A DNA stretch of 64,000 nt, taken from assembly GCA_976551045.1 (NCBI GenBank), contig CDPCPM010000016.1, positions 27,094,001 to 27,158,000 on the forward strand, read 5' to 3'. The DNA comes from Glaucostegus cemiculus (taxonomy: Eukaryota). Shown here in pieces: positions 5,364 through 47,985 of the stretch. The translations under genes and the position numbers were made by a program. How positions within the stretch are numbered: the stretch's first letter is position 1; each line of letters opens with the position of its first letter. The notes below the pieces were generated by a model, which ran no database searches, was not told the DNA's origin, and saw only the letters and a program-made list of their open reading frames with translations.

Positions 5364-5424
5364 TTTATTGCAAAGAAGAAGTTGAAAAAAAGAGCCCATT
5401 AGAATCCAGTTTCAAAAATTTATT
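5364..5424 (-). terminator. Paired AATAAA poly(A) signals, candidate 3' end of col10a1 copy A
   Basis: Plus-strand TTTATT at 5364-5369 and 5419-5424, about 1.1 kb past the stop. The same arrangement occurs behind copy B. Confidence 0.55.
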
Positions 5425-6516
5425 TGACAGCACATAATAAATATATAAGCAGAGGTAATACAAAACCATACGATAGATTGTTGTTATAACTTATACTAGC
5501 TTTCCATGTGATTCATCTGAAATACTGTTCCATGGATGCTAGCAGCTGTTTAGCCATCTGAATCAGCTGGTGTTTCTTCTGTGCTTCCAGAATGTTCAAC
5601 TGTTTTTGACATCATAACTAAGCCTACTTCTTTTGAAAGGTGAAAGGCGCACATTCCCACAATGTTCACTAGAATTCTGATCCAGAATACCAAGCCAATT
5701 ACATTTACTCATCCCCCCACCTTTGTCCTCAATGGACTAAGGATCAAAAGTGGTATCTTCACTGCCAAGTTGGCTGATGGATAATCAACGTACAAACCTC
5801 AGACGGTCCATGAATGGCAATGACAAGGAAGAACAGAGAAAATTTCTATACATTAAAAAGTTACTCATGAAAAAAATATTTACATTTTCTTTGTAATAAA
5901 CACATTTGAAGTATTTTAAGTGAAAAAGCAGCTATTGGTTATAAATCAAATAACTAAAACTTATGAACTCTGAAATAGTGTACATTAATGAGGAAATAGA
6001 TAAAATCTGGAAGCAAAACAATTAGTGTAATTCAATGAACAGCAGAAATACTGCAGTCTAATTTTGGGTAGGAAACACTAATTTTGTATCATCAAACATA
6101 TTTCTTATTTTAGCATAATTTCCCCAAAGATGCTGATTCAGAAAAGAAAACAAAATATACAGAACGAACAGCTTTTTTGGTTTTTAGAAACAGAGCACGT
6201 TTCTTCCTCATGAAGGTAACAAGCTATAAAAATGCATATAATTTTCTGCTTCATTATGTGTATCTTGTACATCAGTGCATTGTATAAACCATATTGTATT
6301 TAGTAAACTTAGATGATCCAAAAGCATATGTGCAGTATAGGAAGAATGACATTAATTCCACAGATATACGTTGTATTAAAATAACACAGTGATGACTTAT
6401 TAGCTTGATAGTAATTGTCCCTTTTTGGCTTCTATTGATTCCTTAATGAGGTTGCATTGTTTATCAAGTAGGATTTGTCCTCTCAAACCTGATCAGATAT
6501 CATTAACTGAGGCAAA

Positions 6517-8348
6517 TCATGAAGGGCTAATCAAAAACCCTGAGAAAGATGACTGTTTCTCATCAGATGAATATAAACCATTGGCTTCTTCTGAAGGTAG
6601 CAATACATAGACTTGGTCATTTTCATGTAAGTGTACTATAATACTTCCTGAAGCCTGATCAACATACCCTGTTGTGTAATCGTCATATGTTTGTAGTATG
6701 GGTTTTCCATTTTTATATATTGCAACCCAGACACTTGCCCCCTTGATTTGTACATGGTAACTGAATTGGTAAAGCCCTGGTATTTCACATGTAAATACAC
6801 CAGATGATGGATTGTAGTTGTTATTTGAATTGGTCACTAGTATGTCAAACATAATTGGTTGACCTACTGGTGGATATGGCCGAGATAGAATGGCTGTAAA
6901 AGCTGGAACAGGACTTAATAATCCAGGTGGTGGCTGTACAGATTTTTCTGGTTGGACATAAATTTCACCAGGTAAACCTGGTGGGCCTGGAAGACCTGGT
7001 GGACCTGGAAGACCAACTGCTCCATTTTGACCTGGTGCTCCTGGTGGCCCCTTGATTAATTGTCTACTAACAATGCCTGGAGGCCCTGGTCGTCCTGGAG
7101 CTCCTGGAGCACCATCTTTACCAGGAAGCCCTTGTGCACCTTTCAAACCAGGCAAGCCTTTGTGACCAGGTGTTCCCACAGGTCCCCTCAGTCCTACTGG
7201 ACCTGGAAAGCCTAATGGACCTTGAGGACCAGGAGCACCAGGGCTTCCTGGTTTACCAGATGGACCAGTAAGCCCAGGATCACCTTTTTGGCCCACAAGT
7301 CCAATTGGTCCTGGTAGACCTGTTGGACCTGGTTTTCCGGGAAAACCTGATATACCTGGGCTACCAGTTGGTCCTCTCTCACCCTTTGCTCCTGGGTAGC
7401 CTTGTATACCCATGTGCCCTGGTGCCCCTTTCATTCCTGGTGAACCAGGAATTCCTTGTAAACCTCTGGGGCCTTCTGATCCCGGTATACCAACTGGTCC
7501 CATTAATCCTGGAGGTCCTGGTTTTCCAATTGGTCCCATCTCACCTTTCTTTCCAGGATATCCAGTATAACCAACTGGACCAGGTTCTCCTTTGGATCCT
7601 GGATCACCTGGCTTTCCAATACCTGGCAAGCCTGGTGCCCCTGGCAAACCTTGTAAGCCAGGGTGACCTTTAAGACCAGGGGGCCCTGGTAATCCTGGTG
7701 AACCATTTACTCCAGGCTTTCCAATTCCAGGTTGTCCAGGTGGTCCCGGTGGCCCTTTTTGACCTGGTGCACCTGTGAAACCAGATGGGCCTGGTGGTCC
7801 AATTTCACCCTTTTTACCTGGTTCCCCAGGGCGACCAGGAGCTCCGGGCGCACTTAATCCCACTGGTCCTGGGATTCCTGGTGACCCCGGGGAACCTGGA
7901 GGTCCTTTCTCACCAGCAGGCCCTGGGATGCCAATTCCTCTTTCCCCTTTTGGCCCAGCAGGACCAGGATAACCTGGATGTCCCTTTGCTCCAGGTAACC
8001 CAGGTACGCCTGGAGATCCTGATGCCCCTGGTGGACCTGGTTTTCCAACAACTGACAATCCAGCTGGTCCAGGATTTCCTGGAGGCCCTGGACTGCCTCT
8101 CTGCCCTTGTAGCCCTTGAACTCCTGGATCACCTTTTGGTCCAGGATATCCTATTCTTCCTGGCTGTCCTGGTGATCCCGGAATGCCTGGAGCCCCCTTT
8201 AAAGTGAGTCCTTGTGGTCCTGGTTGTCCTGGATCGCCAGGAGCTCCTTTCAGCCCAATACCTGGCTTGCCTGGATATCCTGCTTGGCCTGGGGGTCCTG
8301 GTGGTCCTGGAGGTCCAGGTGGTCCAGGTAACCCTGGATCTCCCCTCA
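6517..8348 (-). CDS. col10a1: Collagen alpha-1(X) chain, copy A, exon 3 (triple helix + C1q/NC1 domain)
   Basis: Uninterrupted ORF with a Gly-X-Y helix carrying 8 imperfections. The NC1 has [50 protein letters not shown], typical of type X collagen. The acceptor aactttctaccttcacAG (AG at 8349-8350) gives a phase-1 junction G|TG-AGG-GGA-GAT. TGA is at 6517-6519. Confidence 0.93.
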
Positions 8349-9584
8349 CTGTGAAGGTAGAAAGTTGCATCTAAATATAATATGCTTTCATAGTTAATTT
8401 TTATTCCTCTCTTTAAAACAGAATTATGAGCAAAATTAAAACAAGTCATATTTCAATTTGCTTATATTACACTGTCTTGAGAAATGTAAAAATGAAATCA
8501 CAATTTTAAAATGGTTAGAACTAAGGGGTGAGATTTTCTGCTGTGTTGTATTGATTTTGCATGCTATCTTATCCAAAGCTAGTCAAAAGATTAAAGAATG
8601 GCCGTCTCAAATGACCTTCAGTGCAGGCTGAATTTCTGTAATCTTTTGCATTATATAAAAATTATAGCACGAGAAACCAGTCCTGCTCACAAAATTTGCC
8701 ATACCATGTGATCAAATAAATTCCATTTTATGGACTTTTGAGAAGCAGCTTCAATGTAAATTTGGAGGCTCCAAAATACTGATGGACACATTTTGAAAGC
8801 TTTTATTTTTTGTAATCAAACTGACTAATACAACTGATAAATGGGGCTTCTGCATGGGTATTCTACAGTAATTTTCAATTTTTTAAAATGGACACCTTGT
8901 TTTCCAAAAGTTTACATGATAACTCACTTTAACTCTTAATAAAACTCATAGATTTAGTATCAAAGAACATTACTAATGATTTTTTAAAATAAATTAAGTT
9001 GTAAAAGACAGACTACTTTTGCTGGTCCATGGAGTACTTTATATGTGGTGACATGCAAATAAGTTGAAGTGAAATATCGAACATGGAAACTAATTTCCCA
9101 AAACTAGCTGATTGTACTCAAAGTGGGAAAACATGGTAAATAAAATTAATATGGTTAATCAATTTGGGTTTCTGTTAAAGCTTATTGTTGAAATGTGACT
9201 TTTAAAAGTTGTTTAACAAGCATTTAAATGGATAAATGCTTAAAGAACATTTAGACCTATGAAATTGAGAGAGCTGTACTTGAATACTATAAATTCCATT
9301 TGTAAAAGAGCAAATTTTTAGGGTGTTTTGATGTTATATTCTTGCTTGAGTGATATTTGTTGACCTGTTTGTCAAGGTGTGGTACTATGTTTGTAGTTTG
9401 AGATTATTCTTCCTCCTATTGTGGAAACGGTTTCAATAGAACTAGAATACTACAGACCTATAACAGATTTTAAGTAGAGATGTGGGAAGAAGGAGAAGGA
9501 AAAATAAGTGGTTAGGTCTGTGATTAGGTGGAAGTGAAGCAATGATAAAATACTAAAAGACAAATTATGTAATCCTGGTAAAAG

Positions 9585-9700
9585 GTCAGCAACCCTGAAA
9601 TGTTAGCTCTGCATCTGTCCCTCCGGATGTTGCCCAACCAGCAGAGTATTTTCAGCATTTACTGTTTTTATTTTGAATCAGATTTCCACTATCTGCAAAT
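9585..9700 (+). mobile_element. Penelope-like element terminal repeat remnant
   Basis: 'cctgaaatgttagctctg..gatgttgcccaaccagcagagtattttcagcatttactgtttttatt..cagatttcc'. The same family recurs near 27780, 32035-32520, 54535, 55655, 56085 and 57380. The class assignment is from recall of elasmobranch repeats. Confidence 0.55.
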
Positions 9701-10104
9701 TTACTTTTACACATTTGTAATATGTTCTCACTAAGGCACTTTATATTGCATTGTTTATCGTGTTATTATTAGTCACATGTGAAGGAATCAAAAATATTGA
9801 CCATAGATATCTGTGAAGGAATAGCAGTTTTAACAATTACAATTCTTCAGTAATGTCCTGTTTAGTTAAACGATCCAAGCAAATATGATACATTAACTTT
9901 GACTTGCGGAAATATTTAATTAAGAGCTTAATAGAGGTTGGTAGTTATGATTATCATGGTCATATATTAGAAAGTTGAATTTAGAAATCTTTTGTGGTGA
10001 GATGATCAGAAAAATAATACATCACTAATTTACTTTATGAAAAATTTACCATGTCATAAATGGAAAAATAATGTTGAGTTTAGAAATGATATGTTCTCAG
10101 AGAA

Positions 10105-10720
10105 TCAGAATATATACGTAACAGCATTCGAATTGGGTGTAGGCCACTTGACCTTCGAGCATGCTTTGCTAATTAATAAGATCAAGGCTGATCTGATTAT
10201 AGCTTTGGCTTAGCATTCCCATCTATGCACAAGAGCCTTTTACCCTCTTGCTTATCAAGAATCTATCTACGTTTTCCTAAAAAAATATTCAGAGTCTCTT
10301 CTTCCAGTGCACTTTGAGGTTTCCAAAGACTCTTGATCCTCTGAGAGGATCAAATGCCTCAACTGTCTTAAATGGTTGACCTAATATCTTTAAACAGTGA
10401 CCTTTGGTTCTGATTTTTTCACACCAGGAAGCATCCTCTCCACATCCACCTCTATTAAGAGCCTTGTATATCTCAATCAAGTCACCTGCCACTCTTCTAA
10501 ACTCCTGTCCTGTCCAATCTTTCCTCAGAAGACAACCTACAAATTGCTGTTATTAGCTTATTAAAGCTTTTTGTGATCCGTTCCCAAAGCATTATCATCC
10601 TTCCTTAAATGAGGAAATTATTGCTGTGGACAGTAATTAAGAAATTTTCTCACCAGTGCACTATATTACTGAAATATGGCCTCCCTCCGTTTGTGTTCAA
10701 TTTCCGAGGAATATATGTTG
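10105..10720 (-). mobile_element. CR1 LINE 3' fragment
   Basis: ORF 10289..10492 reads GDLIEIYKAL..RTKGHCLKI, the CR1 ORF2 C-terminus. Confidence 0.75.
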
Positions 10721-11279
10721 TTAATACATTATTAATTTATTTTTGTGGAATTTTCTTCATTGAAGCATCTCAATAAAAGTCTTGGCTAAGAGACAATGCA
10801 AGCAGATTACTCATCCAGCCAACTGTGCATTGATATACTAGGTGGTATCAAACTCAGCATCATTGCATAAAGGAAGTAAGTTTCCAATGTGAAAAAAAGA
10901 GTGTAATCTGGAGTTTGGAGCCTGTGGCATTTTCAGGGTAAAGCTTAGTGGTTTGGAAAGCAATGCCATTGTTTAGGAACTATTGAACTGACACTTCAAG
11001 AGGACAGAGAGCATCCCGTTTCTTAATTTGGTCAGGAATTATGACAGATGAAGTAAGACGCTGGAGGACTCTATTCAGGGCAGTTTACTAAGGGCCCCAT
11101 AGAGAAGTTGCCAAATAAGAGTAGCAGGAGATGCCAACCAATGCAACTACTATTACAAAGTATCACATATTTGGAGGAAATGAATGAACACTTGGTGACT
11201 TTACAGGGTCAGCCAAAGGAAAGGAACACACTTCCATTAATTTAGTGCATTAACCATCCTTGGCAGTTATAATTTTCTT

Positions 11280-13620
11280 TTCCTCACACTGCCTTAAATT
11301 ATATTTAATATGTGCTGAACATGTCCATTTTAGAATAAAGTTAGTACCAGTATTTTTCTCAAGAAGCTTTCCTTGGATTACAGAATGCATTTAGGTCCGA
11401 GTATCCGTCTAGCATTTATTTGGCTTTATCTTAATTTATTCCTGACATTTGGGAAACACTCAAAAGACTGTGTTCATTGCCTGGCATGAGCTGGTTAGCC
11501 ACCTTTGTGAAGTGATGCAACTCTTGTGCTCTCTTGATGTTAGGGTAGCAGTGACCTAGGAAAAAGTGGAGTTGTTGTTTCCCCTGCAATGCATGATAGT
11601 CCCAGAGACACATAAATTGTTGAAGACTATGCATGCTGGAGCTGCAGTCCACCCACATTGGACATCATAGTGAGTGGCGTCAATGCAGTAAGCAGGCCCA
11701 ATGTGAATAATATTGAGCACCTTGAATATGGCTTAAGCTTCTGGCTTGTGCCTTGTGGATGGTGGAGTCTTTGAGAGACTAAAAAGCAAATTACTTATTT
11801 TAATGTATCTTGCCTGATCTCTGTCATTACAGTGTTAAAGTGGCTGATCCAGATAAACTTCTGGCCCCATAAGTTCAGTGCTGAGATATGATGATAGTGG
11901 TGCTGATGAAGGTCAGTGAGACATTATTTGGCATTTTTGTCAGACGTGGTCAATGTCTGGCACTTAGAAACAGAAAATAGAGTCCTCCAGCGTCTTACTT
12001 CATCTGTCATAATTCCTGAAAATTCATCTCATCTATTGACCCAACTTTGGATGTTGTTATTATCCTGTTGTTTACCGGCATACAATGTTTCATTACTGGA
12101 ATTGGTGGCTGAGATGAATACAACAGTATTGTCAACCAACAGCTACACTCCTATCAGATGGAAAGTCATAAATGAAAGCAGCTGATGATGGTTGGCATAA
12201 GGACCCTCTAGTGAAGAATTCCTGAAGTGATATGCCAGAGCAGTGATGACTGGCTTTTGATAACTGCAACCCTTTTTTTTGGGTTGTATAAAATTCCAGT
12301 CAATGAAGGCTTTTTTAATAATGCTCATTTACTAGTTTTCATAGGGGACATTTGCACTGTATTTGGTCAATTGTTGCCTTGATATTGAGGGCCAGCTACT
12401 CTCACATTTCCTATGATACTCAGCTCTTGTGTCCATGCATGGATTAAGACTATGATAACTTGAATCAAATAGGGCTGGCAGAACCTGAACTGTTAGTGAG
12501 CAGCTTACTGGTAAGTCAGCTAGCCATAAGTACACAGCCTTGCAGGATGTTTATTTAACACATTATTTTTCGCCATGGTATGTGTGGATTCACCAATGCC
12601 CAAAGCTTGAAGGTCAGTCCACATTTCTCTCACCTGTGTTTAAGCATCCTCACTTTGAATTTAGAAGTGATAAAAGAATTTAGGAGAATTTGAGCATCAG
12701 GAGAGGTGAGGTGTGCTGCAGGAAGCAGGGTGCAGGGTCTTGATAAATATGGTATGTGGTTTGAGACTCAGCCTGGGTAAAGCAGGATGCCAAGCTTATA
12801 AAACTGTCTGATTCAGCCTCAGAGTCTGGCCAGTGGGAGCAATGGAATCTTTGGCAACAGAGAACAGCCTTCAGTGGATTCAGCATTCAATGAGAAGAGA
12901 AACTGATTTTTCCACAAATTGATGTTAGGCACTGTTAACAGCGTAGTGATAATGATGTGGTGTAGACAAGTTCTGGGCAGGTGCATATGTTTGTTGTCAG
13001 CGTACACAGTGGCTGATGATATCCATTCCTGTGGATAATTATATAACGGGGTGGGATCCAGAATGACATCCTTGGGGAAATCCAGGATTGACTATGATGG
13101 TAGAAGAAAATCAACTGAAAGTGTGCTGAGTACATTTAAGGAAGAGTGAGGCAATCTAATGGAATTGGATAAGAGGAGAGGCAGTGAGGGAGGATGGCAT
13201 ATCTGTCAAACATCATAGAGAGATCAGGGAGATGAGGACAAATATGCATTCGACTCAAAGTGAATGCCTTTTGTGATTTTAGGCAGGGTATATTTTCAGG
13301 GACAGTGTCCTGGAAGATCACTGAGGTATCTTGAACCATGGTTCCAGATGATACCTTTGTTGCCTGGGATCTATGGGCACTTGTATTTTTAAGTAAACTA
13401 TTAATGGTACTTTGGATTGCCTTTAATGAAGACATTGTGATAGCTGTCTGAAACAAAAAAATAATTTTCGTTAATCTTTCAAAAATGAACTGAATGGTCA
13501 TTCTGAGGTGCACTCCTTTTCTGACTTGTGTAGATAGTGGAGCACATAAGACCTTCTATGATCCCTAGCCTTCTTGGCTTTGGGAATTCTGACATTTAGT
13601 AAATTTGTACAGTGCAATGT
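11280..13620 (-). mobile_element. Old, highly decayed non-LTR retrotransposon (CR1/L2-group), same family as 20020-21758
   Basis: A decayed RT motif (GVPQGSVLGPTIFSCFINDL-like) lies on the minus strand near 12160-12240, with blocks resembling the 20020-21758 element. There is no intact ORF and the boundaries are approximate. Confidence 0.55.
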
Positions 13621-13639
13621 TGCTGTTGGTAGTCAGTGC

Positions 13640-18652: not shown

Positions 18653-18761
18653 CAAGACTTTTTGTATTATAGGGTGATTGATTGTAGGTTTTATATCCTA
18701 CTCCATACACCAGGGTAACAGACATAGACATCAGAAGTGCACCAACTTCCTTTGAAATCAT
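18653..18761 (-). CDS. col10a1: Collagen X copy A, coding part of exon 2 (signal peptide + NC2): MISKEVGALLMSMSVTLVYG-VGYKTYNQSPYNTKSL
   Basis: Acceptor catttacAG at 18777-18778, then a 15-nt leader and 36 codons + 1 nt, then donor G|GTAAGT (GT at 18651-18652). The phase matches exon 3. It is homologous to exon 2 of copy B and to the LVHG signal-peptide end of tetrapod COL10A1. An in-frame upstream ATG at 18773 would add MPSN. Confidence 0.88.
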
Positions 18762-19146
18762 ATTTGAAGGCATATTCTGTAAATGTTTTAATAGAAATGT
18801 ATTTATAATCATTAACAAATGGAATAATAAATATTTAATAGCATAATGAAATTTACTATCAAAAAGAAAATTTGAAAATAACAAATAGTTACATCCCTAA
18901 TGAGATACTGACTTTGAAAAGTCTTGACTAGGCCACATTTCAAACAAATTATTGAACATCTCCATGGATGATGTCTTTCTTACTGTCCATGTTTCCAATT
19001 ATTATTTCAAACATATTTGCAGAGAGCTACAAGGAAGAAGTATACATATCTAGTAATTCAACCTATTTGCAACTAATTGAAATCTGTGACATGACCTTCT
19101 TGCTCCTTTGCATGCTAACATAATTAAAAATTGAAATGCAACATAC

Positions 19147-19234
19147 CAGTATGTTTTCTCTTCTGAACCGTATTTCAGTTTTGCATCCCCTATTGGATTA
19201 TTCCCTGATATCTTGGAACATCTGAAGCAGAAAT
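19147..19234 (-). other. col10a1: Non-coding exon 1 of col10a1 copy A (TSS approximate)
   Basis: Begins ~30 nt below TATATAA and ends at donor CTG|GTATGT (GT at 19145-19146). Intron 1 is 370 bp, the same layout as copy B. Confidence 0.7.
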
Positions 19235-19256
19235 GCAAAAGTATAAATGCTGGTAC

Positions 19257-19435
19257 TTATATATGAGAGACTCCGACATAAACAGCTGTGAATTTTAAAA
19301 CTCCTCCCTTTAAATGGAAGTAATAACTATGCTGTTTTCTTTTAACTTTTAAAGTGCATCAGGTTGGTGGTTTTGTTCTGGTATGTTGTCTCCTTTCAGA
19401 TTGGTGTTCAACATGACGATGCAGACAGTTTTCAA
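19257..19435 (-). promoter_or_regulatory. Proximal promoter of copy A: TATA box, GGAGGAG box, RUNX-like site, CCAAT
   Basis: TATATAA at 19263-19257, CTTCCATTTAAAGGGAGGAG at 19320-19301, AACCACC at 19372-19366 and CCAAT at 19404-19400. All are collinear with copy B. Confidence 0.75.
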
Positions 19436-20019
19436 AACCAAAACTGCTATAAATCTTCAATAAGTAACTTTTGATTATCTAATTTTATAGAACAGTTGTC
19501 CCACCCCCCCCCCCCCCACCCAGTATTTCAAATTTGGAGTACCGAAGGACCATAAGGCAACATTTCAGTACTTTCCATCAATGACTTTTTTTATTAATCT
19601 CATCCAAGTAAGTTTTTTTTAACATTTAATAACATTATGGCATCTGGACCCTGGCTAAGCAGAATACATAAGATTGGAAGACTTTTGTTCACATAGCTTG
19701 ACAAATTTATTTCTTTATTTGATTATTTACCTGAAATTACAGAAGTTACTGATTTAAATGTGATAATCAAAATAGCAAATTTGAACCATACTTCATAACT
19801 ACTAAATGCAATTCTACCTCTAATATCTGGCACAGTTGCCTAACCAAGAGTGCCTATATGATGGAGTATTAGCTTAGGCACAGATTGAAGCCAACCAACA
19901 TAAATGTAATTTATTCTTTCCTGAGATGGTGAGATGGAGTTACCTCAACCTGGACATTCATGCTAGAAAACAATAAATGAAGTGTAAACCAGTGGAATTG
20001 GCCATGAAAAATCTAGTCA

Positions 20020-32620: not shown

Positions 32621-33274
32621 GAACTGTGACTGATCTTGACCAATCCATGTGCATAGTATTGTGGCACATTATTTATTTGCTGATGATAAATGATCAAACA
32701 ACTGAACAGTCAAAATATTTTCAATGAGCAAATTAAAAACATCACTGTGGAAATTTTGTACTTTGAATGAAACAAGCAATTTCATTTATAACCTTTAGAA
32801 GACAGTTATTATTTTAACTAATGTTTCATCTTGTCATTTCTTCACACTGATTTGTAAACTATTGAAATACATGAAGTATAACAGTTTATAGCACCCAGAT
32901 TTTTTTTTAACAATGCCTTTACTGTGGCACATTCACTTGGAAAAGCTTAATTTCCTCCAGTTTTATATGTTGTTTCTGGACATTATTTCAACTAAGCTTT
33001 ATCTTTGTTAGGTTGTTCCTCTTCTTGAATAATGAGGTTTCATCAATCAACAGAAAAAATTAATCACAGGAGCTGTTGAGCATAAACTGCATTGCTTTTC
33101 AGCAATTCCAAACTGCTAGCTAAAACTGGAATTGGAATTTTTTGTCATTGAAATAATGATGCTTATAAATTCCCTTAATATGCTCATTTTGGTAAATTTT
33201 CAATGTGATGCTATTTTTCAATATACCTGCACATATAATTATGTTAGTATGCCTCTTTTCCGCTGCTTATTAAA

Positions 33275-33366
33275 ACATTTTCAAATTTGTAAATCACACA
33301 ATCTAGTTTATTTATATTTTACATTTTCAAATTTGTAAATCACACAATCTAGTTTATTTATATTTT
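33275..33366. repeat. Perfect 46-bp tandem duplication
   Basis: ACATTTTCAAATTTGTAAATCACACAATCTAGTTTATTTATATTTT occurs at 33275-33320 and 33321-33366. Confidence 0.95.
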
Positions 33367-35403
33367 GCCAGCAAAGTTATTTTTTTCTCCCACTTTGTTC
33401 TTTTTTCCTCATGTAACTCTGGGTGTGGAGAAATTAAAGATACTTGGTACAAGGCACTTGGAAAATCCTGCAGGATTTCAAATAATTAAAAAAAAACTTT
33501 TCCCTTTGCCTTCTACTTTGTAGGAAAGTGGTCTTGAGATATAGGATTAGCCATGATTTAATAAGTTGCTGAGGAAGATTGAAGGGCCATGTGGACTACT
33601 TTGAATCTATGTGGTTTCTTATGGAGTTGAGAGGATGGTGGAAGATAGATGGGGAACTTCAGAGAGAGCCCAGTTTCAAGAAAAGGCACTCATCTCTTTG
33701 GGTTGAGGTCCAGGAAGTAGGTAGGTAGTTGTCCCATGATAAGGCAGAGGCCTGAGGTTGAGGTAGGGAGGTGGTAGAACATGGTATTGGGGGCTCTAAT
33801 TGTAAGGGGCCAGGAATGGAGGGAACACCAAGCATAATATTGTAAATGGCCCTGTCAGTCAGAAGATTGACACATTAGATCCCCATTAAAGGAGACATTA
33901 AATCTCCAGGTAAATGGGAATGGCCTGATTCAGCATGATTGGCCCATGCCATTAAAAAGGTTTGAATGTACAAATAAATTTAGGGTATATGATTTCAAGG
34001 TCTATGTTGTACACTGAATTCACTATGCATGCCTGGTATTCTCTGGCATATGTGTGTTATATACTTGCATGAACAAGAACAAGTGTTCAGAAGTGCACAT
34101 TTTAAACCAAACATTTTAAATTTAATTCCTCTGTGCAACATACAAGATTATTGCAATATGCTAAAGAAATCCGAGCCCTCTTTTTATGCAAAACAACCTT
34201 GATGTTTTGGTTCTACAGTACAGATCTGTAGCATGTAGGTACAGCAGGATTTAGGATGGCAGCTAGTACATTAGACTATATTGCAAGCAAATTGAAGTAC
34301 AATCTTGCTTCATTTACACAGGGCTTTGAGCTAGAGTGGAAGTAGCAACAGCAGCAAATGCTAGATTTATTCAGCAGCTCAGGAAGCTCATTTTAACATT
34401 AATTTTCTGGGAACTGGGCACTGCTAGTAAGGTCAGCATTTATTATCTAACTCTAATTATCCTTGAGAAGGTGGTAGCGAGCAGGGAACTATTGTTGCAC
34501 AGTTGTTCAAGTCTGCAATCTAACCCTAAAGGAATGAAAGAGTGAGGGGATCAGATGGAAAATGGACGTGAAATGGCAGAGCAGCCATAACCTTATCAAA
34601 TGGTGGTTTGAGAAGGTTGAAAAATCTTTTGGCATATTTCTGACCCTAATATTTGTATGCACTTGCTGAGTCAAAGGTTCATATTTCATATCAAGGGTCA
34701 CAGAGCAAAAATTCCAAAATAATCAAAAGGAAACTAAATAGTCATAAAAAATAGCTCCAGTAATTAACACCTGATGTTGAAATTGTTTTTTGTATATCAC
34801 AACTGAATTTAGATGTATAAATCCACAACAGTCCAGTGTCCCTTTGAGAAAACATCCTGAGCTCATTACCAGTTGAATTTTGCAGATGTGAGTATTATAA
34901 ATCTTTGCCTTGGTTGTCATTTGAGCTTGATGTAATACTTTGACTATTCATCCATTTTCATTGCCTTGAGTTTGACAGTAAAGTCAGGGGCTGGATCTTC
35001 TACTCTCCAGCATGCTGAACACCTGCCGTTGGACGCACTCCTTCTTCTTGAATGGTCCCATGTGTAGTCTTCTGTTGAGTTGACAGTTCTACTTTCCTGT
35101 TGTTCAGCAAGGCCCAGTGCAGTGGAGGACCTTGCAAGTGACTAATTTCTTCTCGAGATTGACAGCGGGTGAGCCCCACCACCTGGCTTATCCATTCCTA
35201 TCCACTCACCACAAGCCATTGCAACCCTAATCTATGCCCTCCACCTCCACCACCTCCATACTTTCTCAGAAGTCATGTGCCCATCTTGCCAATCTGTGGC
35301 TCAGCAAGGCTAAACTTGTAATGATTGAGCGCCTCTAGAGGCTATTTTCCATAATTCTGGTTTAACAGAAGCAAACGAGATTTAGAGTAGCATCATAAAC
35401 AAT

Positions 35404-35484
35404 TTTATTTTATATACACATTTTGAAATAATAAAATGCTTTGTGGCTATTAATGCATTTCAATACAGTTTTTAATATTTTATT
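35404..35484 (-). terminator. Paired AATAAA poly(A) signals, candidate 3' end of copy B
   Basis: Plus-strand TTTATT at 35404-35409 and 35479-35484, about 1.0-1.1 kb past the stop. Confidence 0.55.
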
Positions 35485-36494
35485 TTTTGACAGTAAGGCC
35501 TCGGGTTTATAAAAAAAGGTTCAATATAGTTTACTGTACAATATTGCCAGTTGATTCCTGTTATTTTGGAAATGGACAAGGATTTCTCCTATCCAAAGCA
35601 CCTCTCTGTGATTTAATTGTGGAATAATTAATTTTAGTATTTGTCAAATCTTTAAGATAATTATTGGTGTCAAGTAGATTGGTTTTGAGTAGGTCTGTGT
35701 GGGAAAAAGGAGTATGAGTTTTTTTTTAAAAATTGCATTTATATTGTGATATTTCAGTTTAAGACAACATAAAATGAAAAATCCAGTTTGTCCAATTTTT
35801 TGACAGTATATTTCTCAAAACTTGCACTTGCTGCTTTAAAGCTAATTCACTGTGACGCAAGAGGTTCTCTTATTTTCTTGCTGCTACGAGAAATGGCTGC
35901 ATGTTGTAATTATTTGGAAAATACCGCTAGGTTCCATCTGAAGGGATATGGATGCTTGTTGTTGACATGGACGAAAATAACCATTGATCAGTTAGTCGAG
36001 TAAACCATTATGTGATAGATCATTATAAACTCTTGAAGAAATACATATAACTAAGTTATTTGAAATAATAGTAGTTCTCCACTGTCTTTCTTTGGTAGGA
36101 TGGAGATGCCTGAATGACACTAAATCTCCTTTGAAACAGGGGACAATAGATATGTATTTTGCAATGTATTTTCCAGGAACTTTCTCGAACACAGTGAGAA
36201 ACATTACTGCCATTTCGCCAGAGATAGGAATGTGACAGTTCGATTAAGCACTTTGGAAATGAGTTTCAACCAGAGCCCACCCTGAGTAGATGGTGGATGG
36301 AAATTGTGCCATGTTTCCCTATGGGGTCCTGCAGGAGACCCAAAACATTTTAGTCGTGAAGCCTTTATAAAGTATTCTGTGTGAATTGCCAGGACTCCGC
36401 AAGCATGTATAAACAACTCGCCACCACGTTGGAGGTGGGATGGTTGTGGGTGATGGCGGGTGGTTGGGGGAATTGCCAGTATGATTGATGTGCA

Positions 36495-38329
36495 TCAAAT
36501 AGTTTGACTAATTAAAAATCCTGAGAAGGATGAATGCATATAATCAGAAGAATATAAGCCATTGGACTCGACTGAAGGTAACCCAACATAAACTTGGTCA
36601 TTTTCACGTAAGTGTATTATAGAACTTCCTGAGGCTTGATCAACATAACCTTCTGTATAATCATCATATGTGTACATTATAGGTTCGTCATTTTTGAACA
36701 GTCCAACCCAAACATTTCCTCCTTTGACTTGTAAGTGATAAGTAAATTGATAGATACCTGGCATTTTACATGTAAATATTCCAGTTGAAGGATCATAATC
36801 ATTATTTTGATTGGCAAGTACTTTGTCAAATGCTATAGGTTGTTGGGCTGCTGGAAAGGATTCTGAAAGAATGGCCGTAAAAGCTGGATATGAATTTGTG
36901 ACTCCTGGCACAATGTGACCATTATAGCCCCCATACTTTCCTGGTTGTGCACTTTCCCCTGGAGGCCCTGGTGCACCAGGGGGCCCAGGTGGACCTGGTG
37001 GACCTTCTGGGCCTGGAGGGCCTGGTGGTCCTTGAGGTAACTTCTCATGGAAACTGGAAGAAAGACCTGGTGGCCCTGGTGGCCCTGGAGGTCCTGGATC
37101 TCCTTTTTCTCCAGGGAATCCTGGAGGGCCTGGGTAACCGGGAGGGCCTCCTGGACCAGGAAGTCCAGGGGGTCCATTCAATCCAACCTCACCTGAGAAT
37201 CCTGGTGGCCCTGGAAGACCTGGAGAACCAGGTTCACCTGTTTTGCCAGGTGACCCAATGGGTCCAATAGCACCTTTCTGGCCAGGAGGTCCTCTTGGAC
37301 CTTCTGGCCCAGGCAGACCAGGTTCTCCTGGAATTCCTGATTTACCTGGGGCACCCCCAGGACCCATCTCACCCTTTAGTCCTTGATATCCTCGAGCACC
37401 TGCTGAGCCCGGTTCCCCTTTAGCTCCTGGTGCACCAAGTGCACCAGGTGCACCTCGTAGACCTTGAGGCCCAGGTGGACCGGATGGTCCTAAAAGTCCA
37501 GAAGCTCCTGGATTACCTGGGGCACCTTTTTCTCCTTTTTCTCCAGGATATCCGGCAGGGCCTGGTGAACCTGTGTCCCCTTTAAGTCCTGGTGGGCCTG
37601 GTCTCCCAAAACCAGGAAGTCCGGGTTCACCTGGTGGGCCTTGGGAACCAGAGGAACCCTGGGGTCCAGGAGGTCCTGGTAACCCTGGTGTGCCATCCAC
37701 TCCAGGCTTTCCAATACCTGGTGGTCCAGGTAGCCCAGGTGGGCCTCTTTGACCTGGTGCACCAGAGTATCCAGGTGAACCTGCTAAGCCTTTTTCACCT
37801 TTTTCTCCTGGCTTGCCAGGAATGCCCGGGGCTCCTGGTTTTCCGTATCCTACTTCACCGCGAATTCCTTGTGGTCCTGGTGGTCCAGGGGGGCCCCTTT
37901 CACCTGCACGCCCTGGTATTCCAACTCCTCTTTCTCCTTTTGCACCAATTGGACCAGGGTACCCTGGTTCTCCTTTTTTCCCAGGTGGACCTATTGGTCC
38001 CGAAGCACCTGGCGGCCCTTGTGCACCCGGTTTACCAGGAATGGACAATCCATTTGGCCCTGGAAATCCTCTTGGACCTGGTAAGCCTTTCTGTCCTTGT
38101 ATGCCAGGAGGTCCCATGCTCCCTTTTGGTCCAGGGTACCCTCTTTCACCTGACTTTCCTGGTGCTCCTGGAATACCATCCTTCCCTATGCCTGGTAGCC
38201 CCTGTGGACCTGGCCGCCCTGGATGACCTGGTGGTCCTGGAGTTCCAACACCTGATTTTCCTGGGTATCCTGGTGGGCCTGGTGGACCACGTTGTCCTGG
38301 TGGACCTACTGGTCCTCTGTACCATCTGA
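36495..38329 (-). CDS. col10a1: Collagen alpha-1(X) chain, copy B, exon 3
   Basis: The frame stays open 212 nt upstream of the ORF-track Met, up to the acceptor ttttctattaacAG (AG at 38330-38331). It reads (G)TC-AGA-TGG-TAC-AGA-GGA = [15 protein letters not shown]. The NC1 has [65 protein letters not shown], very close to canonical type X. Confidence 0.95.
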
Positions 38330-39075: not shown

Positions 39076-40389
39076 AGGCCATAGATTAAGTTTGTGTACC
39101 AAGCTAATATTTTTATTCCCTTATATAGTTCATCATATTGTGATTACTTTTCCCACCTGTGTCCACGATATCGTGCTTGTACCTTGCTTAAATTGTTGTA
39201 ACAATGGTACAGCAGAAACAGGCCACAACACGTTGCTCCACCACCTATCTAGCTTTCCCTGAAATGCATCTATGTTATATGATTCAATGATGCTTCAAAA
39301 CAGTGAATGCCACATTTTTGTTACGCACTGGACAGAAAGTTTCCCCTGAATTCCATATTGGCTTTATTTTATAGTTATTGTTCCTAATTTTGGACTACCT
39401 CACATGTTTATATTTCACTTATTCACTTGATAATTGTTGCTTATTGTTCACGCTTGGATGCCTCTAAACTGAGTAGTTTGCTAAGTAAGCTGTTTCAAAG
39501 GACAATTAATAGTGACCTACAGTACTCAGGAACTGGAGTCACAGACCACATAATATTGGCAGATTTCCTTTCCTGAGGGTCATGAGTAAAGCAGATAGGT
39601 GTTTGCGATACTACAATGGTTTCATTGCCACTGTGCCTGATATTTGGTTTTTATTACTAGTTTATTTAATTACTTGCATTTACATGAATCTCTAGATTGA
39701 TGGGGGTGCTGTAGCAAAAGTGGTTGCAGAATTCTCCACATTTACCCAGTCTCTACCAGGTCAGTCTTCAAACTTGTTGTCTATATCCAAGCGTTCACCA
39801 GTCTGCTCAGTTTTCTCGATAGTGTATAATCTTCAATTTCTGGTATTGTCCTTGTAAATTATTTTGCACTTCCTTCAAAGGTTTCATTTTCTTGTTATAA
39901 TGTGATGACCAGAAGACCGCCTTTTGCTCTGAGCGCAGTCTAAATGATAAAATTTCAACCTAAGCTCTGATTTTTGACATCCAACTATCTCAAAACGAGT
40001 TCCAGTGCTTGGTTTGCTGTTTATATGATGCCATTATTTTAGCCATTTGAGTTCATGTGTCCTATTATTTCTCTGTCCCTTTCAGGCTGTCACTTGTCCA
40101 ATGCTACATGGTGCAGCAAAAACAGAAATTGCTGGAGCTTTACAGCAGATACCTCCAGCATCTTATGTTTTTATTTCAGATTTCATGTTTCACTGTGCTT
40201 TTTTAATTACTTTTGGGAGTTTTTGCTCGGGTTTTCAAATGATTCATAAACTCACAGAGGGTTTAGGAGAATAAAGAAGTCCTCAACAGTTTGATACAGA
40301 TATTGATGTGGAAACAAGAGGTTATTCCAAAAATGTGGAGCTGGGTTATCAGTAAGTGATAGCTGTTATTGCAGCAGAGCATTGATGAA

Positions 40390-40890
40390 AGGATTGGGAG
40401 AGGTATGGTTGCAATGTGAATGTTCCTAGAGTGCAAGTTTATGAGGAGTAGTAGTATAGGTTGATGGGGGTGCTGAAAGTATTAATTTATGATGACGTTG
40501 GATAGGCTAGGCCTGTACTTTCTTGACTGTGGAAAACTAAAGAACAAGGTAATGTTTATAATGATTTATTAATAGAGTAGATAAAAAGAAACTGGTAAGA
40601 GATTCCAGAACAAAGGATCACAATCTTAAAATTAGCCATAGACTGTTTCAGGGTAATGTCAGGAAGCATGAATTCACACAAAGGGAACTGGAAATCTGGA
40701 ATAATCTTCTCAAAAATGCTTTAGACTCTGGATGAATAGAACAAGTGGATCAATACACTGAGAGTTTGCATGGAGGAAGATCTATAGATAAAACGCAATG
40801 AGAGTAAATGAAGCTGAGAAACAGATCAGCCATGGTCTAATTGATTGGTGGATCAGGCTTATTGTCTGAATAGCTGAATTCTTTCCCTAG
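40390..40890 (+). mobile_element. Decayed CR1 3' fragment
   Basis: 'ggataggctaggcctgtac', 'ttcacacaaagggaactggaaatctggaat' and a tail 'gatcagccatggtctaattga'. Confidence 0.6.
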
Positions 40891-43800
40891 GGGAGCATTA
40901 AAGTGGATAGTAGGTTGCTGCTGACTTCTGCTTTATTTTGTTATGAAACTGGTCCACAGTTGAGGTATGGTTGGATGCACAGTAGTAAATGGAGTGGGAT
41001 CCTAAGCTTTCTCAATGGGATGAATTTTTCCCATTAGTGTCAAAGCATACAAACTTCACTAATACTTGACTTTTCTTTTATCCCCCATTCCGCTCTGACC
41101 AGACTTCCCTCACTTTGCAACCAGGAACAATGTAGCCTTGATTCAATTCAGAATTTCTCAGTTGATTTTGATGGTTGGGGCGAATTGTAGTGGTGGAGAG
41201 AGATTTTTTTGAGACTTCAAAAAATAAGTGATTGTGTTTGATAATCGGAGGTCTAATTGTAAAACGAGAAACTGGTGTCTGTGGAAAGATAAATTTACAG
41301 AGGGGAGAGATGATGGCAACAAACTGATAATGGCAATGGGAAGCTGGGAAGATGGAGTTTAAAATGGCTTACCCAACACCACAGTGATAAGTGGCACAGC
41401 ACACTCATTTGGAAAGTTAACATGAAGAACTCATTAAGAAGTGAGTAAAATGGATAGGGAAGTTTAATAACAAATTAAGGGTATAGTGGAAGTAGATGGG
41501 ACAAAAACACATCACATGAATAAACTAGATTTCTTACTCCCCTACAATAATCTTGATTCTATTGAGAATTAATGATGGACAATGCAATTCTATGTGTAAT
41601 ACAAGCCACCTTCTCACCTCTGGGGACAGAGAAAGTAGACACTCGATTTTCTTCCGAGCTCTCAGAACTTCGATCTCTGTTTCGCTGACCTATTTAGGAA
41701 AAGTCAACAAATCACAGTGGAACTTTAACAAATATTTTCATTTGTTACTTTGGGTTCATACACAAGCACACTAGTGGAAGGATTGCCACAAGTGATCTTT
41801 TGGCTGTCCTGTAATAATTTATGTTGTCCCTAGTGAAGAAGAAATTCTGTAAATTGCGTTGGTTAAAATTCTCTCAGTTGCACGCATGTGGCAAATGTTG
41901 CAGTAACAGTTTGTACTTAGTACCTTATTAAAAAGAGTAGAACTTTTGCTTACCAAGGCAATTTTTGATTTGTGTTCAAGCTTCAAAAGGGTAATAAAAT
42001 GTATTTAAAAAAATTGAAAAATAATAATTTAATTATATAAAATATAATTAGTTTCTAAATATAAAAATATAAAAATATATAAATATAAAAAGTTTCTAGC
42101 TATAGATTCTCCATACTGAACTATGTGTTGTTTTTCCCTTTCCTCTTAAAGGTTGTTTCTGCAAAGTTACTTTGCATTACTTCTGTAGTAGAAGATTTTG
42201 ACACAACTCTTATTGCTTTTCCCTGCCTTGCTAAAAAAAATTGTGCTGATTTTAATCAAGTTGTATGTGTGTAAGAGTAAACAAAAACATCAAAAAAAAT
42301 GAACCCGTATCTTTGATGGCTTTCCTTCAAACAGGAAACTTTAAAAACAAACCTTTGCAAAGCTTGGATGATGAGAAGTACTAACATTGACTTTTATCTA
42401 TGCTTAAAATTAGAAAGTTTATGTAAGAAAATATGCCGTTACTTATAAAAGACAATGAACCATATTACCTATATAATGGAAATTATGATTTTACTTCATT
42501 AAAGCAAGGTTACCGTTGACATTCAGTTTAATTTATATTTTGTTGTTTGTACTAAATAATTATCTTACTGTAGCCCAGTATCTAATTGATCATACTCATG
42601 CAATGATCATACAACATGTGTAAGGTTTTTTTTAGTTTTTATTTTATCCTCTTAATAAAATCAATGCTTTGGGTTGAATTGAATGCACAGGCCCAAATAT
42701 CTTAACCACTGACAGTGCCACATTCATTACACTGGACTGTCTGCTTTGACCATGAACACTGCACCACACCCTTCTGACTCAGGCAAGATTATTACCAACT
42801 AAGCCATGTCAGCACTATGTGGTGAAGATTTAACCAATTATGAGCAGGGGAATGACATCATTCATGAATCAATTCTGTGGAACTAATAGAATATTCTTTC
42901 TTAACAACAATTAGACAGACACGTTCTCTGAGCTTAAGAAAGACTGCAAAACACATTGGTACATCTCAATGATTTTTAAATAATGTTGAATATTTGTCAT
43001 CCAAATTAAAATTGTATTATAATAGCACATTTGATTACATTTATTGTTTATTGGAGCACATTGCTTCGGGGGACAGTTTTTTTTAGAAAAAGGCTTCATT
43101 TGGAAAATCCAGGTGGAAATCTGAGATCTATTATCTGAACTGCACCTGATGTTGAAGAATGAAAGAAATTAATGACATAATGATTACTACAAGGAATACT
43201 GCAAAGTAATTTAAATTAGGAGTGTACTTAAGTATAATGGGTGTCTTAAATTTAAGCACAATTATTTTGTTTCATTATTGCCATGGTAGTTTATTTTCCT
43301 TCTGGTCAATTGTTTTATCAATAACTAATTACTAGCAACTGATACCTCCTTGTAGGTTTTCATACCTGCATGGTACTTAAAGTTTTGTAGATTTCTTGCC
43401 TCTTTAATTCACCTGAATTTTTTTTTCAAATCAGCATAACATTTGGGTCAGTGAGCAGAATCTTCCTGGCTGATGCTGGGTTTCCAAAGGAAAACACCTG
43501 AGTTAATTGACTCAAATGGAAGTCGTGGTTTTATGTGGACCGATGTTAGTCTGGGACTGATTGAGTGACAGATTTTAATACAATGGCTGGAGGTACTTAG
43601 TGTTAAAGTAGAAATTGCCTCTCCTGTTCACTATTGGCTGAAGTATGGTTGAAGACCTCAAAGTGATTATTGCCTATGGAATGTGGTTTTTTTTATTATT
43701 TTACTTTAATGTTTTTAATGATTTGTAATTACAGTAAATATTTAATTAACTTTGTTTAGAAAATTTACATAATTCTTAATGGCATCTGGAAGGTTTTTTT

Positions 43801-44024
43801 TAAACTCCTCACAGCTTTGACGGAAACCAAAGCTCCACCCTCAGCTCTGCCTTCTGTCAAACCATGTCAGGGGTATTCTGGGGATGGGTCTTTGCACTAC
43901 CTTAGGCCTCATCACTGCTCCCCATTTCCAAGTTGCAGAGGGAGAGCAAGATAGATCCTTTATGTCTGTCCCTGATGAATGTGGCCAAGAAAGGACTACA
44001 GCTTGGTATTGGTGTCAGTTTACG

Positions 44025-44608
44025 GCACACCAACGCATCGATTTCCTCAGAAGACTAAGGAAACTTGGCATGTCCCCGATGACTCTTACCAGTTTTTACA
44101 GATGCACCATAAAAGGCATCCTATCTGGATGCCTCACAGCTTGGTATGGCAACTGCTCTGCCCAAGAGACCTATGAATTCAGCTCAGTCCATCACACACT
44201 CTAGCCTTCTCTCCATTGACTCTGTCTACACTTTCCACTAGTTCAGAAAAGCAGCCAAAATAATCAAGCACCCCTGCCTCCCCAGTCATTCTCTCTTCTC
44301 CCCTCTCCTTTTGGGCAGGAGATATAAAAGCTTAGGAACATGTACGACCAAGCTTAAGGACAGCTTCTATCCTGCTGTTATCAGATTCCTGGGTAGACCT
44401 GTCATATGCTAAAAGATGAACTCTTGATCTTGCAATCTACCTCATTGTGGCCCTTGCACTTTACTTGCAACTGTAATACTATATTCTGCATTCTGTTTTC
44501 CTTTTGACTACCTTGATGTGTATTTGTATGGAATAATCTGTTTGAATGGCTGTGAAATAAAACTCATTTCACTGTATCTTGGTACATGTGACAACAATAA
44601 ACCAGTAC
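44025..44608 (+). mobile_element. Rex1/Babar LINE, 5'-truncated
   Basis: AHQRIDFLRRLRKLGMSPMTLTSFYRCTIKGILSGCLTAWYGNCSAQ, with a 3' UTR collinear with 14200-14600. Confidence 0.85.
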
Positions 44609-47193
44609 CAGCTTCTCAATGTCCATTATGGTTAATGGTCAACTGGAGCTGACTTTTTTGCAACCTTATAATAAGCAAATGTCATTCTCGGTTCTTTACC
44701 GCCCCATGTTAATGGTCAATATTCAGTATCTTGCCCTTGATGGTACTCAGAATTTTCAGAATAATCATTTGTATGTAACAGTCATCATCCCCCAACTGAT
44801 TCTCCTACCACCGACCTCCACCAGCAATGTTTTAACAATAACCAAATAACCTAAAAACCAGCACATCTTATGACTCATATTAATAAAGAATACATGACAA
44901 GGGACCAACCATTGCATTTTACATCCTGCAAATAGTTTATCTTAGCAATTCTAAATTAACAATACGGAATGGTCAGCAGTGACCATGGTCCATGATGCTT
45001 ATCATGTTTTCTGCGTGTGCCCTGTATTGGGGAGGTAATTGAAAGACAATTTTAAGTTCAGAAATTTAATTTTAAGTGGGAATGTACTGGTGCCACTGAC
45101 ATTTTTTTTCTCGAATTGTTTTCTCCTAAGTTGTGGCCTCATGATTGTTAAAAGCTGTTTGCCTAAAATTTCTTGAAAAATTTGCTGAAACAATGTTGAA
45201 AATGCGTATTATACCTCGCTTTGGTGTAAATCTTGGAACACTGAATGAATGTTTTAGCATTGGGTATAAGTCGGGCACAACATCGCAGGCCGAAGGGCCC
45301 ATTCTGTGCTGTACTGTACTATGTTTATGACATTATTGATATTTTGTCCTGATTCTATGAAACCTGAGTTACGGAAATCCTCTGATTTTTTTAATATAGT
45401 TCTTTTCCAAGGATAAATGCAACTCACAATAATTTTTTTTGAATTTACACTAGTTCTGAGTGTGCTATGTATTTTAGCTACAGTGGGATATAAATTTGAA
45501 TTTCTGTTATATATACATTTGTTAAACTATTTCTTCACACTGAGGCCAGAATTATTTTTTCCGCAGCTCTGATTGAATCTTTAGTGCATAAGAATTTAAT
45601 CCAAATTTGAAACGTGTCCATGGGTTTATTCAGATTTAGATATTTTCAATAATTTTTATGCTTTATAAGTGATGTAAAAAGTAATATCATACACATTCAA
45701 TACAGTCCATTAAGCATGTTCCATTTTGTATTTTTTAACATTTTAAGAAATGCTAGTGGGATTCCAAATAAATTCTGGATTAACTTGCTGAAAGAGATAA
45801 TGGTTTATAATTTTAAGAAGAATTTGCACATTTAGTATGGCCTCATAATCTGTATATTATTTAATGTCTTCTATGTAGATTATTGTAGGCATTTGTTCTT
45901 CTAAAATATAATTAAATGTGCAATTAAATTTATGATAAATGTTCATGGCCCATTAACTTCCACCAATTCATATCTGCCTTTAAACAAGTTTGGTGTAACT
46001 TGCTATCACGCAAATATGTTTGGGTTAGTTTAGACTGATTAGTTTTAGGCAATAAATCAGCTCTCCTATGGATTATGTACATCAACAATTACTTGCATTA
46101 TGTAGCATCTTTAACATTGTAAAACATCCAATTGCACTTTACACATTAGAAAACAAAATTTGTGACTGAGCTGTATGAACTTCAAAGTATCTAACATTAT
46201 CTAATCTAACACCATTTAATATCTAATTTCCTATTTTCATTATTCAACACCAGCCAGCTGATCCTCCAAATCCTTTCCCCTTTTCTGACATGAGTATACC
46301 AGTTTTGATGCACATTTTAAAAACTGCTACAATTCAAACTGGAATTTATATTAAAAATAGATGAAAACAATTATTTGTGCAGATATACATTTTCATTTAT
46401 TTTAATTTCTGTCCAGTGAATTTATCTGACATTTCATCTTATTTGGTATCAAATATTCACAAACTTATTGACAATGCCTTTTGCCATTTCTCAAAAAAAG
46501 TTCAGTTGAAGATCATCCATGTTATCGAAGTTTAAATAGGTCACTATGATGACAGAGTGTCTGCAGAAAGATGAATATTTTGTGATTTGCAGTTATTTAT
46601 CATAAGAATTGTAAGGTCTTAACATAGTCCATTAAAGAAAGCTGTTCCTAGGATTCTTCATCCGTAAGGATAATATCCTATTGTTTGTAATTTGGCAATT
46701 GTGGTAATCATATATTTTATTCTGTCCATTGTCTATGTTCACAAAGACGATTTGAATTAAGATATGGATTGATGAAGCAGTGCACCAGCATGTTATGCCA
46801 GTAATTACTTGGCTGCAAGTTTGTACGGGAGTGACCCAGGTTCATCCTGGTTGTCTGGGGAGTTGGTGAAGTATTCAGCTTTGGGAGGGACAGAAAATTG
46901 GAGAACATGTCAGCCTTAACCCTTTTACATTCCATGCTGTCTGGAAGAATGCATCAGCAGAAAGGTTTCACTGCCCAATTTAGTGATGCACAATGTGAAA
47001 GCCTTACAAAGAGGATATACAAAAATAAGCTTTGGGTATGGAATTGGAAAGAAAATGAAAATTAAATGTTAGTTGCCTGAACTATCATTCAGAAACAAAA
47101 AAAGCACTGAAGCATCAGTAGAGCTGCACTATATTGTCATTTTGAATGATTTGGTTTATTAAAACTCACAGTGACTGCAACATGAACACTTAC

Positions 47194-47293
47194 CATTGGT
47201 ATTGTGTGCATTATTATATCTATAATATCCAAGTCCATTGACCAAGGTAACAGTTAATAGCAACAGAATTGCACCACCCTCTTTTGGAGCCAT
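47194..47293 (-). CDS. col10a1: Collagen X copy B, coding part of exon 2: MAPKEGGAILLLLTVTLVNG-LGYYRYNNAHNTN
   Basis: Acceptor ctttacAG at 47309-47310, a 15-nt leader, strong Kozak aacATGG, 33 codons + 1 nt, then donor G|GTAAGT (GT at 47192-47193). It encodes a hydrophobic signal peptide. It is too short for the ORF track. Confidence 0.92.
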
Positions 47294-47691
47294 GTTTGTT
47301 GTTCAGATCTGTAAAGTATTTATAGAATTTTTGAATACTGATGGAAAGGAAGGTGTGAACTAATGTAATTATCTTAAATCCAGAGTAGCACTATGTTAGC
47401 GTTAAAGCTATTAGCAGGAAACAAATTATCTACAAGAAAATAATATATTGTTAAAAATTGTGAAACATTGCATTCACGTGTAACATATTTGAAAGCTTAA
47501 AACCATTTAGTTTTAAAACTGCTAACAATTAAAACATTTAATTTATTATGCTATATGTTGCTTAACAATAATCTGCCAGTGCATTTAGTAGACACTTCAC
47601 ATTTAAGAAGGGTTCCAGAAACCGAACATGCTGTTAATAAGTAATGTAGTACTGTAGAGCTAGAATGACATTCAAAGTTTAACAAACATAC

Positions 47692-47780
47692 CGACATTTT
47701 TTATCTTCAAAATGTTGATTCAGTGCAGTCTCCCAATAATTTATCCTACAAAATAGTAGGGTGTCTGATGAAGAAGTCTT
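47692..47780 (-). other. col10a1: Non-coding exon 1 of col10a1 copy B (TSS approximate)
   Basis: Starts ~30 nt below TATAAAA and ends at donor TCG|GTATGT (GT at 47690-47691). Intron 1 is 383 bp. Confidence 0.72.
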
Positions 47781-47801
47781 TACAGAAACAATACATGTTG
47801 C

Positions 47802-47985
47802 TTTTTATATGAGAATGCTTACTCACACAACAGTAAGTTCAGTAGCTCCTCCTTTCAAGTGGAAGTACCAATTATGCTGCTTCATTTTTCACATTGACAA
47901 GTTGTATCAGGTTTGTGGTTTCTTCTGTTTTGAGTTGCCTTGACTTCATTGGCATTGCTCTTCTCATTGCAGACAATTGCAAATG
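47802..47985 (-). promoter_or_regulatory. Proximal promoter of copy B: TATA, GGAGGAG box, consensus RUNX site, CCAAT
   Basis: TATAAAAA at 47809-47802, CTTCCACTTGAAAGGAGGAG at 47865-47846, AACCACA at 47920-47914 and CCAAT at 47952-47948. Confidence 0.8.

Follow-up and report, generated by a model that had tools for sequence, protein, structure and literature searches.

The collagen X chain is a secreted protein which trimerises through its C-terminal C1q (NC1) domain. The trimers assemble around cells into a network that is linked to the nucleation of mineral. In tetrapods it is encoded by a single COL10A1 gene, and the human gene follows a three-exon plan with a phase-1 intron. Tandem Col10a1 genes were reported from cartilaginous fishes in 2019 (PMC6759074), five in holocephalans and six in elasmobranchs, where five of the six copies lie within intron 6 of Nt5dc1; the duplications were placed before the holocephalan-elasmobranch split, at 352-447 Ma. 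Here we describe a stretch of 64,000 nucleotides from Glaucostegus cemiculus (assembly GCA_976551045.1, contig CDPCPM010000016.1, positions 27,094,001 to 27,158,000 of the forward strand; hereafter the window, numbered from its first letter). With high confidence we read it as carrying a tandem pair of type X collagen genes, both intact, which match Col10a1.2 (gene B, the upstream copy) and Col10a1.3 (gene A, the downstream copy) and which likely supply collagen to the mineralising matrix of teeth and denticles.

Expression of the array has been studied in the catshark (PMC6759074). Col10a1.2 is transcribed by the ameloblasts of teeth and scales during both secretion and maturation, and Col10a1.3 by odontoblasts and, for a time, by ameloblasts. 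In stage-33 embryos the vertebrae showed Col10a1.4 only and Meckel's cartilage no copy. The same study assigns to Col10a1.2 a short acidic domain (S/D S/D DSSEE) between the signal peptide and the helix, refers to the binding of annexins on matrix vesicles and leaves the roles of the Col10a1 domains open.

The array itself, its age, its phylogeny and the paralog-specific in situ patterns are already known from that work, and the phylogeny, synteny and in situ checks proposed in an initial annotation of the window had mostly been carried out there for related species. To this our analysis adds a corrected gene model with an easily missed 72-bp exon, the placement of the acidic motif on this separate phase-1 exon and the conservation, between ancient paralogs, of a core promoter which together with exon 1 spans about 290 bp. 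The passages of PMC6759074 that deal with exons, introns, promoters and phosphorylation describe no separate acidic exon, conserved promoter or phosphorylation. Open-access literature on the array yielded PMC6759074 and PMC13188829 only, and subscription papers or public annotations may already hold the four-exon model.

Two tandem type X collagen genes

Six-frame translation of the window reveals two long collagen open reading frames (ORFs) on the minus strand, at 38357-36498 in gene B and at 8370-6520 in gene A. Both genes are intact and lie exactly where the initial annotation had placed them, with reading frames free of internal stops that encode collagen plus C1q products, and Pfam Collagen and C1q matches are above cut-off in both. 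The two products share a signal peptide (judged by eye), a short NC2 domain, a Gly-X-Y helix of 461 residues in A and 455 in B, with 8 interruptions each, and a C-terminal C1q domain. Tetrapod COL10A1 resembles them in its short N-terminal domain, in an interrupted helix of similar length (about 460 residues) and in its C1q domain, while the YDEY of its NC1 structure (1gr3) reads YDDY in genes A and B.

Gene A follows the three-exon plan of the human gene, with an intron 1 of 370 bp and a predicted phase-1 intron 2 of 10,304 bp for which GT/AG ends are present at 18653/8348. Its product is 646 aa long from ATG 18761, or 650 aa from the in-frame ATG 18773, which adds four residues. In gene B, intron 1 measures 383 bp and GT/AG ends are present at 47194 and 38329. 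The TATA-like boxes, both intron 1 lengths, the 15-nt leaders and the last exons of 1,832 and 1,835 bp were all recovered as annotated.

Assignment to individual array copies was made by eye over one 120-residue stretch of helix from Raja, the copies.1,.4,.5 and.6 being checked for motifs only. Gene A agrees with Raja Col10a1.3 at 107 of 120 positions and with Raja Col10a1.2 at 77, whereas gene B agrees with Col10a1.2 at 94 of 120 and with Col10a1.3 at 74. In its signal region gene A matches Raja clavata Col10a1.3 at 18 of 19 residues, also by eye, a closeness that would point to a batoid. Gene B carries the acidic motif which PMC6759074 assigns to Col10a1.2, resembles the Col10a1.2 sequences of Scyliorhinus (BK010869) and Raja (BK010855) in the signal-peptide region and in a 72-nt acidic segment with SSEEN, and, like Col10a1.2, is located upstream of Col10a1.3. 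For Col10a1.3 (Scyliorhinus BK010870, Raja BK010857) PMC6759074 reports no acidic N-terminal domain and none was found in gene A, and the comparison of the two gave no difference beyond species divergence. The order of the two genes in the direction of transcription, B and then A, matches the published numbering and the scaffold order in the elephant shark.

Collagens VIII and X have the same domain order, and the NC1 of gene A matches the collagen X structure in PDB (1gr3, 183 bits, E 2.4e-53) by a modest gap over collagen VIII alpha1 (1o91, 167 bits), the top row being 4dou, a three-copy adiponectin chain with 95 bits per domain. One of the copies could on these grounds be of COL8A1, COL8A2 or otolin type. 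However, in C1q trees built on motif-cut segments both genes group with two array units of the horn shark, at 98/98 in a tree that includes otolins (14 of 23 proteins, giving 15 segments), and at 99/98 in a larger one (19 of 29 proteins, giving 20 segments), from which the filter had removed all 7 otolins. Grouping of either gene with COL8A2 was rejected by the approximately unbiased (AU) test (p-AU 2.5e-05 and 1.4e-40), which covered the COL8A2 rows and not the teleost and platypus rows that we take to be COL8A1-type. Given also the direct match to named Col10a1 paralogs, we attach practically no weight to a COL8 or otolin identity. The trees and the match to the array of PMC6759074 instead bear out the earlier proposal of an old tandem type X duplication in cartilaginous fish.

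Protein searches gave no named chondrichthyan Col10a1.2 or Col10a1.3. Of array proteins from chondrichthyans they yielded a single one, the Heterodontus francisci model XP_067876004.1 (2,324 aa). It is named 'collagen alpha-2(IV) chain-like', and in it long interspersed nuclear element (LINE) sequence appears to be joined to two genes of the Col10a1 array, read by eye as.5 and.6. This apparent fusion shows the locus to be mis-annotated in public models. At the C1q end of gene A (6520-6560, minus strand) DEKQ is present where gene B reads DYMH, human collagen X (1gr3) EYVH and the second horn shark unit EEKS, and a change of the NC1 surface at this site is possible.

A third copy was sought within the window by tblastn and by a promoter scan, and none was found (best non-self promoter score 66 against a background of 57-66). 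The initial annotation supposed that the array continues beyond the window, which agrees with the six elasmobranch copies given in PMC6759074.

An additional acidic exon in gene B

The published acidic domain of Col10a1.2 was lacking in the first, 644-aa model of gene B, which prompted a six-frame search for the motif. The minus strand encodes RSSESSEEN near position 41670, within an open 72-bp segment flanked by AG and GT. This segment divides the 8,864 bp previously annotated as a single intron 2 of gene B into introns of 5,504 and 3,288 bp. Because the 72-bp in-frame exon is spliced in, gene B has three coding exons and encodes 668 aa rather than 644 aa; the 646 aa proposed for gene A are retained. 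The claim that both genes have the same architecture is therefore not upheld, and the additional coding exon also sets gene B apart from tetrapod COL10A1. All three S-x-E sites in the NC2 of gene B are on the 72-bp exon. The catshark Col10a1.2 riboprobe (PMC6759074 supplement) has a segment of 72 nt in the corresponding position, in which 48 of 72 nt are identical by eye. The acidic motif of gene B is a separate exon, and the segment is of equal length in shark and ray.

Splicing was followed in four public RNA runs of a related species, aligned to positions 36000-48200 of the window (X1, available as contigs, and X9, X10 and X11). Read counts for X10, X11 and X9 are 7, 10 and 0 at joint 38329/41618 and 13, 3 and 0 at joint 41689/47194; one and the same X1 contig contains both joints. 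Exon 2 of gene B is covered by contig and reads, and stranded reads agree with minus-strand transcription of the gene. The direct joint 47194/38329, which the initial annotation had put forward for checking, is not among the 15 of 53 joints listed for the gene B region, and the inclusion joints are seen instead. It is conceivable that the 72-bp exon is alternatively skipped and that the 644-aa protein is a minor isoform, as the exon is symmetric (phase 1-1), the skipped frame remains open without a stop and the listed joints are a part of the total. However, inclusion joints occur in two of the three raw-read runs as well as in the contig, the skip joint is absent among the 15 listed and the catshark riboprobe contains the 72-nt segment, so that we consider skipping rather unlikely, though with a real minority chance.

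Record 1 of the X1 contigs runs 3,339 letters past position 36000, which puts its end near the AATAAA at 32677, and because the length of this tail matches that signal the 3' untranslated region (UTR) of gene B is probably about 3.8 kb long. Conservation with the related species is high over the first 500 bases of this UTR. The inferred 3' UTR also includes a perfect 46-bp tandem duplication at 33275-33366 (two copies, 100%), each copy of which holds a minus-strand AATAAA; the duplication may be recent, or it may have arisen in assembly.

An acidic exon was also sought in intron 2 of gene A, where 5 strict and 70 relaxed in-frame candidates were obtained, none of them above 33% S/D/E. An SSEE at 10532 in this intron falls in an apparent LINE remnant.

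Divergence, constraint and a common core promoter

The products of genes A and B are identical at 385 of 645 aligned residues, and at 86 of 130 in C1q. In the triple helix 132 of 313 columns are identical once the shared Gly is removed, in agreement with the earlier observation that many X and Y residues differ. Nonsynonymous (dN) and synonymous (dS) divergence are 0.33 and 0.90, giving a dN/dS of 0.36 overall and 0.24 in C1q. These are Nei-Gojobori values between paralogs, rough at a dS of about 0.9 and assignable to neither copy alone, but they are not near 1 and fit the proposal that both genes are constrained.

Five intron, far-upstream and 3' UTR stretches of the two genes align no better than shuffles (z 0.0-1.0; 200 shuffles). 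The introns had been described as not alignable, and this holds for the three intron stretches compared (z 0.9, 0.0 and 0.5), the sole alignable part being a common LINE remnant. The 300 bp up to the first donor do align, with a z of 15.3 and a score that none of 200 shuffles reached. The aligned promoter and exon 1 occupy about 290 bp in each gene (Table 1), and upstream of the TATA-like box the two genes have blocks in common near CAGCATA, TACTTCCA and GGAGGAG. This alignment supports the predicted promoter and exon 1 of both genes; the exon 1 junctions were not seen among the joints listed, and both first exons are predictions.

LINE-like high-copy remnants are present in both second introns, at 13700-14600 and 43700-45360, with 66% identity over 542 bp. 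Both have very deep read cover in all runs, and a Pfam ALKBH8_N match falls on 43821-44201, in the remnant of gene B.

Proposed role in tooth and denticle mineralisation

As members of the collagen X family, chains A and B would be secreted, form homotrimers through a calcium-binding NC1, fold an interrupted helix of about 460 residues and enter a pericellular network; a literature search for the calcium-site residues gave no papers. By analogy with the catshark, the two genes likely provide teeth and skin denticles with network-forming collagen for their mineralising matrix. The pair would most likely share out the work in odontodes, transfer from the catshark embryo giving gene B to the enameloid and gene A to the enameloid-dentine side. 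Unlike that of tetrapod COL10A1, expression in the catshark is odontode-biased.

Elasmobranch egg cases contain short-chain network collagens, and the clustering of Tyr in the NC2 of both genes would suit egg-capsule collagens of the oviducal gland. We regard this as very improbable, since the catshark counterparts are expressed in teeth and scales (PMC6759074) and 'C1q' does not occur among the literature matches listed.

The initial annotation had suggested that the two copies might divide between tesserae, vertebrae, teeth and denticles, and it could be argued that one or both serve endoskeletal mineralisation. Catshark vertebra RNA contains Col10a1.2 at 7 transcripts per million (TPM), and the in situ data come from one shark and one stage before Meckel's cartilage mineralises, tesserae and batoids being barely sampled (PMC6759074). 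However, the in situ results do not bear out a division between tesserae and vertebrae, with Col10a1.4 alone in the vertebrae, and the authors put the 7 TPM down to skin contamination, Col10a1.3 being below 1 TPM. In its available passages a 2026 study of catshark cartilage (PMC13188829) likewise mentions col10a1.4 alone. An endoskeletal role of either copy is thus unlikely, and a role in teeth and denticles remains our preferred reading.

The S-x-E sites on the extra exon of gene B are putative Fam20C targets. If phosphorylated, the exon would provide the ameloblast copy B with an acidic, mineral-binding N-terminus which is absent in A. Ser/Glu-rich S-x-E motifs near the N-terminus of a secreted protein are also a feature of SCPP and DMP1-like phosphoproteins and of the SE domain of Col10a1.5. 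SCPP exons are phase 0, whereas gene B has one short motif on a phase-1 collagen exon, and homology to SCPP genes is not claimed. In PMC13188829 the SxE motifs of cartilaginous fish Spp2 are treated as putative phosphorylation sites, and convergence with SCPPs was proposed in PMC6759074 for Col10a1.5.

It is tempting to speculate, at somewhat less than an even chance, that in cartilaginous fishes collagen X has been turned into SCPP-like mineral regulators by symmetric phase-1 exons with Fam20C sites, inserted paralog by paralog into the ancestral intron 2 under one core promoter for more than 350 My. The plug-in exon is shown for Col10a1.2 and predicted for.4,.5 and.6, and differences between tissues would then lie in distal enhancers and in the mineral affinity of the added exons. 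Ser/Glu repeat units in XP_067876004.1 are compatible with such exons, as are the acidic stretches that the riboprobes for catshark.4 and.6 contain. If the other acidic domains are also inserted, phosphorylated exons, this would be a testable route by which sharks and rays, with acidic SCPP genes few or absent, built the matrix of their enameloid and dentine.

Several points weigh against our assignment of the two genes and their proposed role. The paralog identity was obtained by eye from two of the six Raja copies and diagnostic motifs, and not from a computed tree, and the gene B motif, S-S-E-S-S-E-E, differs from the published D-S-S-E-E in one change of Asp to Glu. The branch to bony-vertebrate COL10A1 reaches only 77/87 in the second C1q tree and is unresolved in the first. 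A place in intron 6 of Nt5dc1, on the opposite strand and near Frk, would be expected; none of the 99 plus-strand ORFs of at least 38 aa between 47.9 and 64 kb matches a nucleotidase family, and no Nt5dc1 exon was detected among them. The transcripts come from a related species, with 92 differences in about 2,330 bases, and from an unstated tissue; for gene A the reads are few and junction 18653/8348, also put forward for checking, was not seen among the joints listed. The literature search found no data on phosphorylation of collagen X.

Gene features and the rest of the window

The coordinates of the features of both genes are collected in Table 1.

Table 1. Features of the two type X collagen genes, in window coordinates
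Feature	Position	Strand	Description
Gene B (Col10a1.2) proximal promoter with exon 1 (non-coding, predicted)	47692..47985	-	TATA-like box 47809, donor 47692; from sequence
Gene B exon 2	47194..47308	-	15-nt leader, ATG 47293, predicted signal peptide, Tyr-rich start of NC2
Gene B extra exon, 72 bp, phase 1-1	41618..41689	-	24 codons, RSSESSEEN; from sequence and both flanking splice joints
Gene B last coding exon	36495..38329	-	1,835 coding bp; triple helix with 8 interruptions, C1q/NC1, stop
Gene B likely 3' UTR, about 3.8 kb	32672..36494	-	To AATAAA 32677; inferred
Gene A (Col10a1.3) proximal promoter with exon 1 (non-coding, predicted)	19147..19440	-	TATA-like box 19263, donor 19147; from sequence
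Gene A exon 2	18653..18776	-	15-nt leader, ATG 18761, predicted signal peptide, short Tyr-rich NC2
Gene A last coding exon	6517..8348	-	1,832 coding bp; triple helix with 8 interruptions, C1q/NC1, stop
Gene A predicted 3' UTR	5364..6516	-	AATAAA at 5424 or 5369; sequence alone

In the region of gene A (5294-19125), low depth from minus-strand first mates is seen in several non-repeat-looking bins, for example 1.2 at 18632-19125 in X10 and 1.3 at 5294-5787 in X11. This depth is a weak indication which would agree with transcription of the plus strand across the region, such as a location within an Nt5dc1 intron would produce, although repeats are a possible source.

Upstream of gene B there is an assembly gap of 137 N at 51932-52068. 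An open frame of 153 codons at 50155-50613 on the minus strand has no Pfam match and resembles the C-terminus of the reverse transcriptase of CR1-type LINEs.

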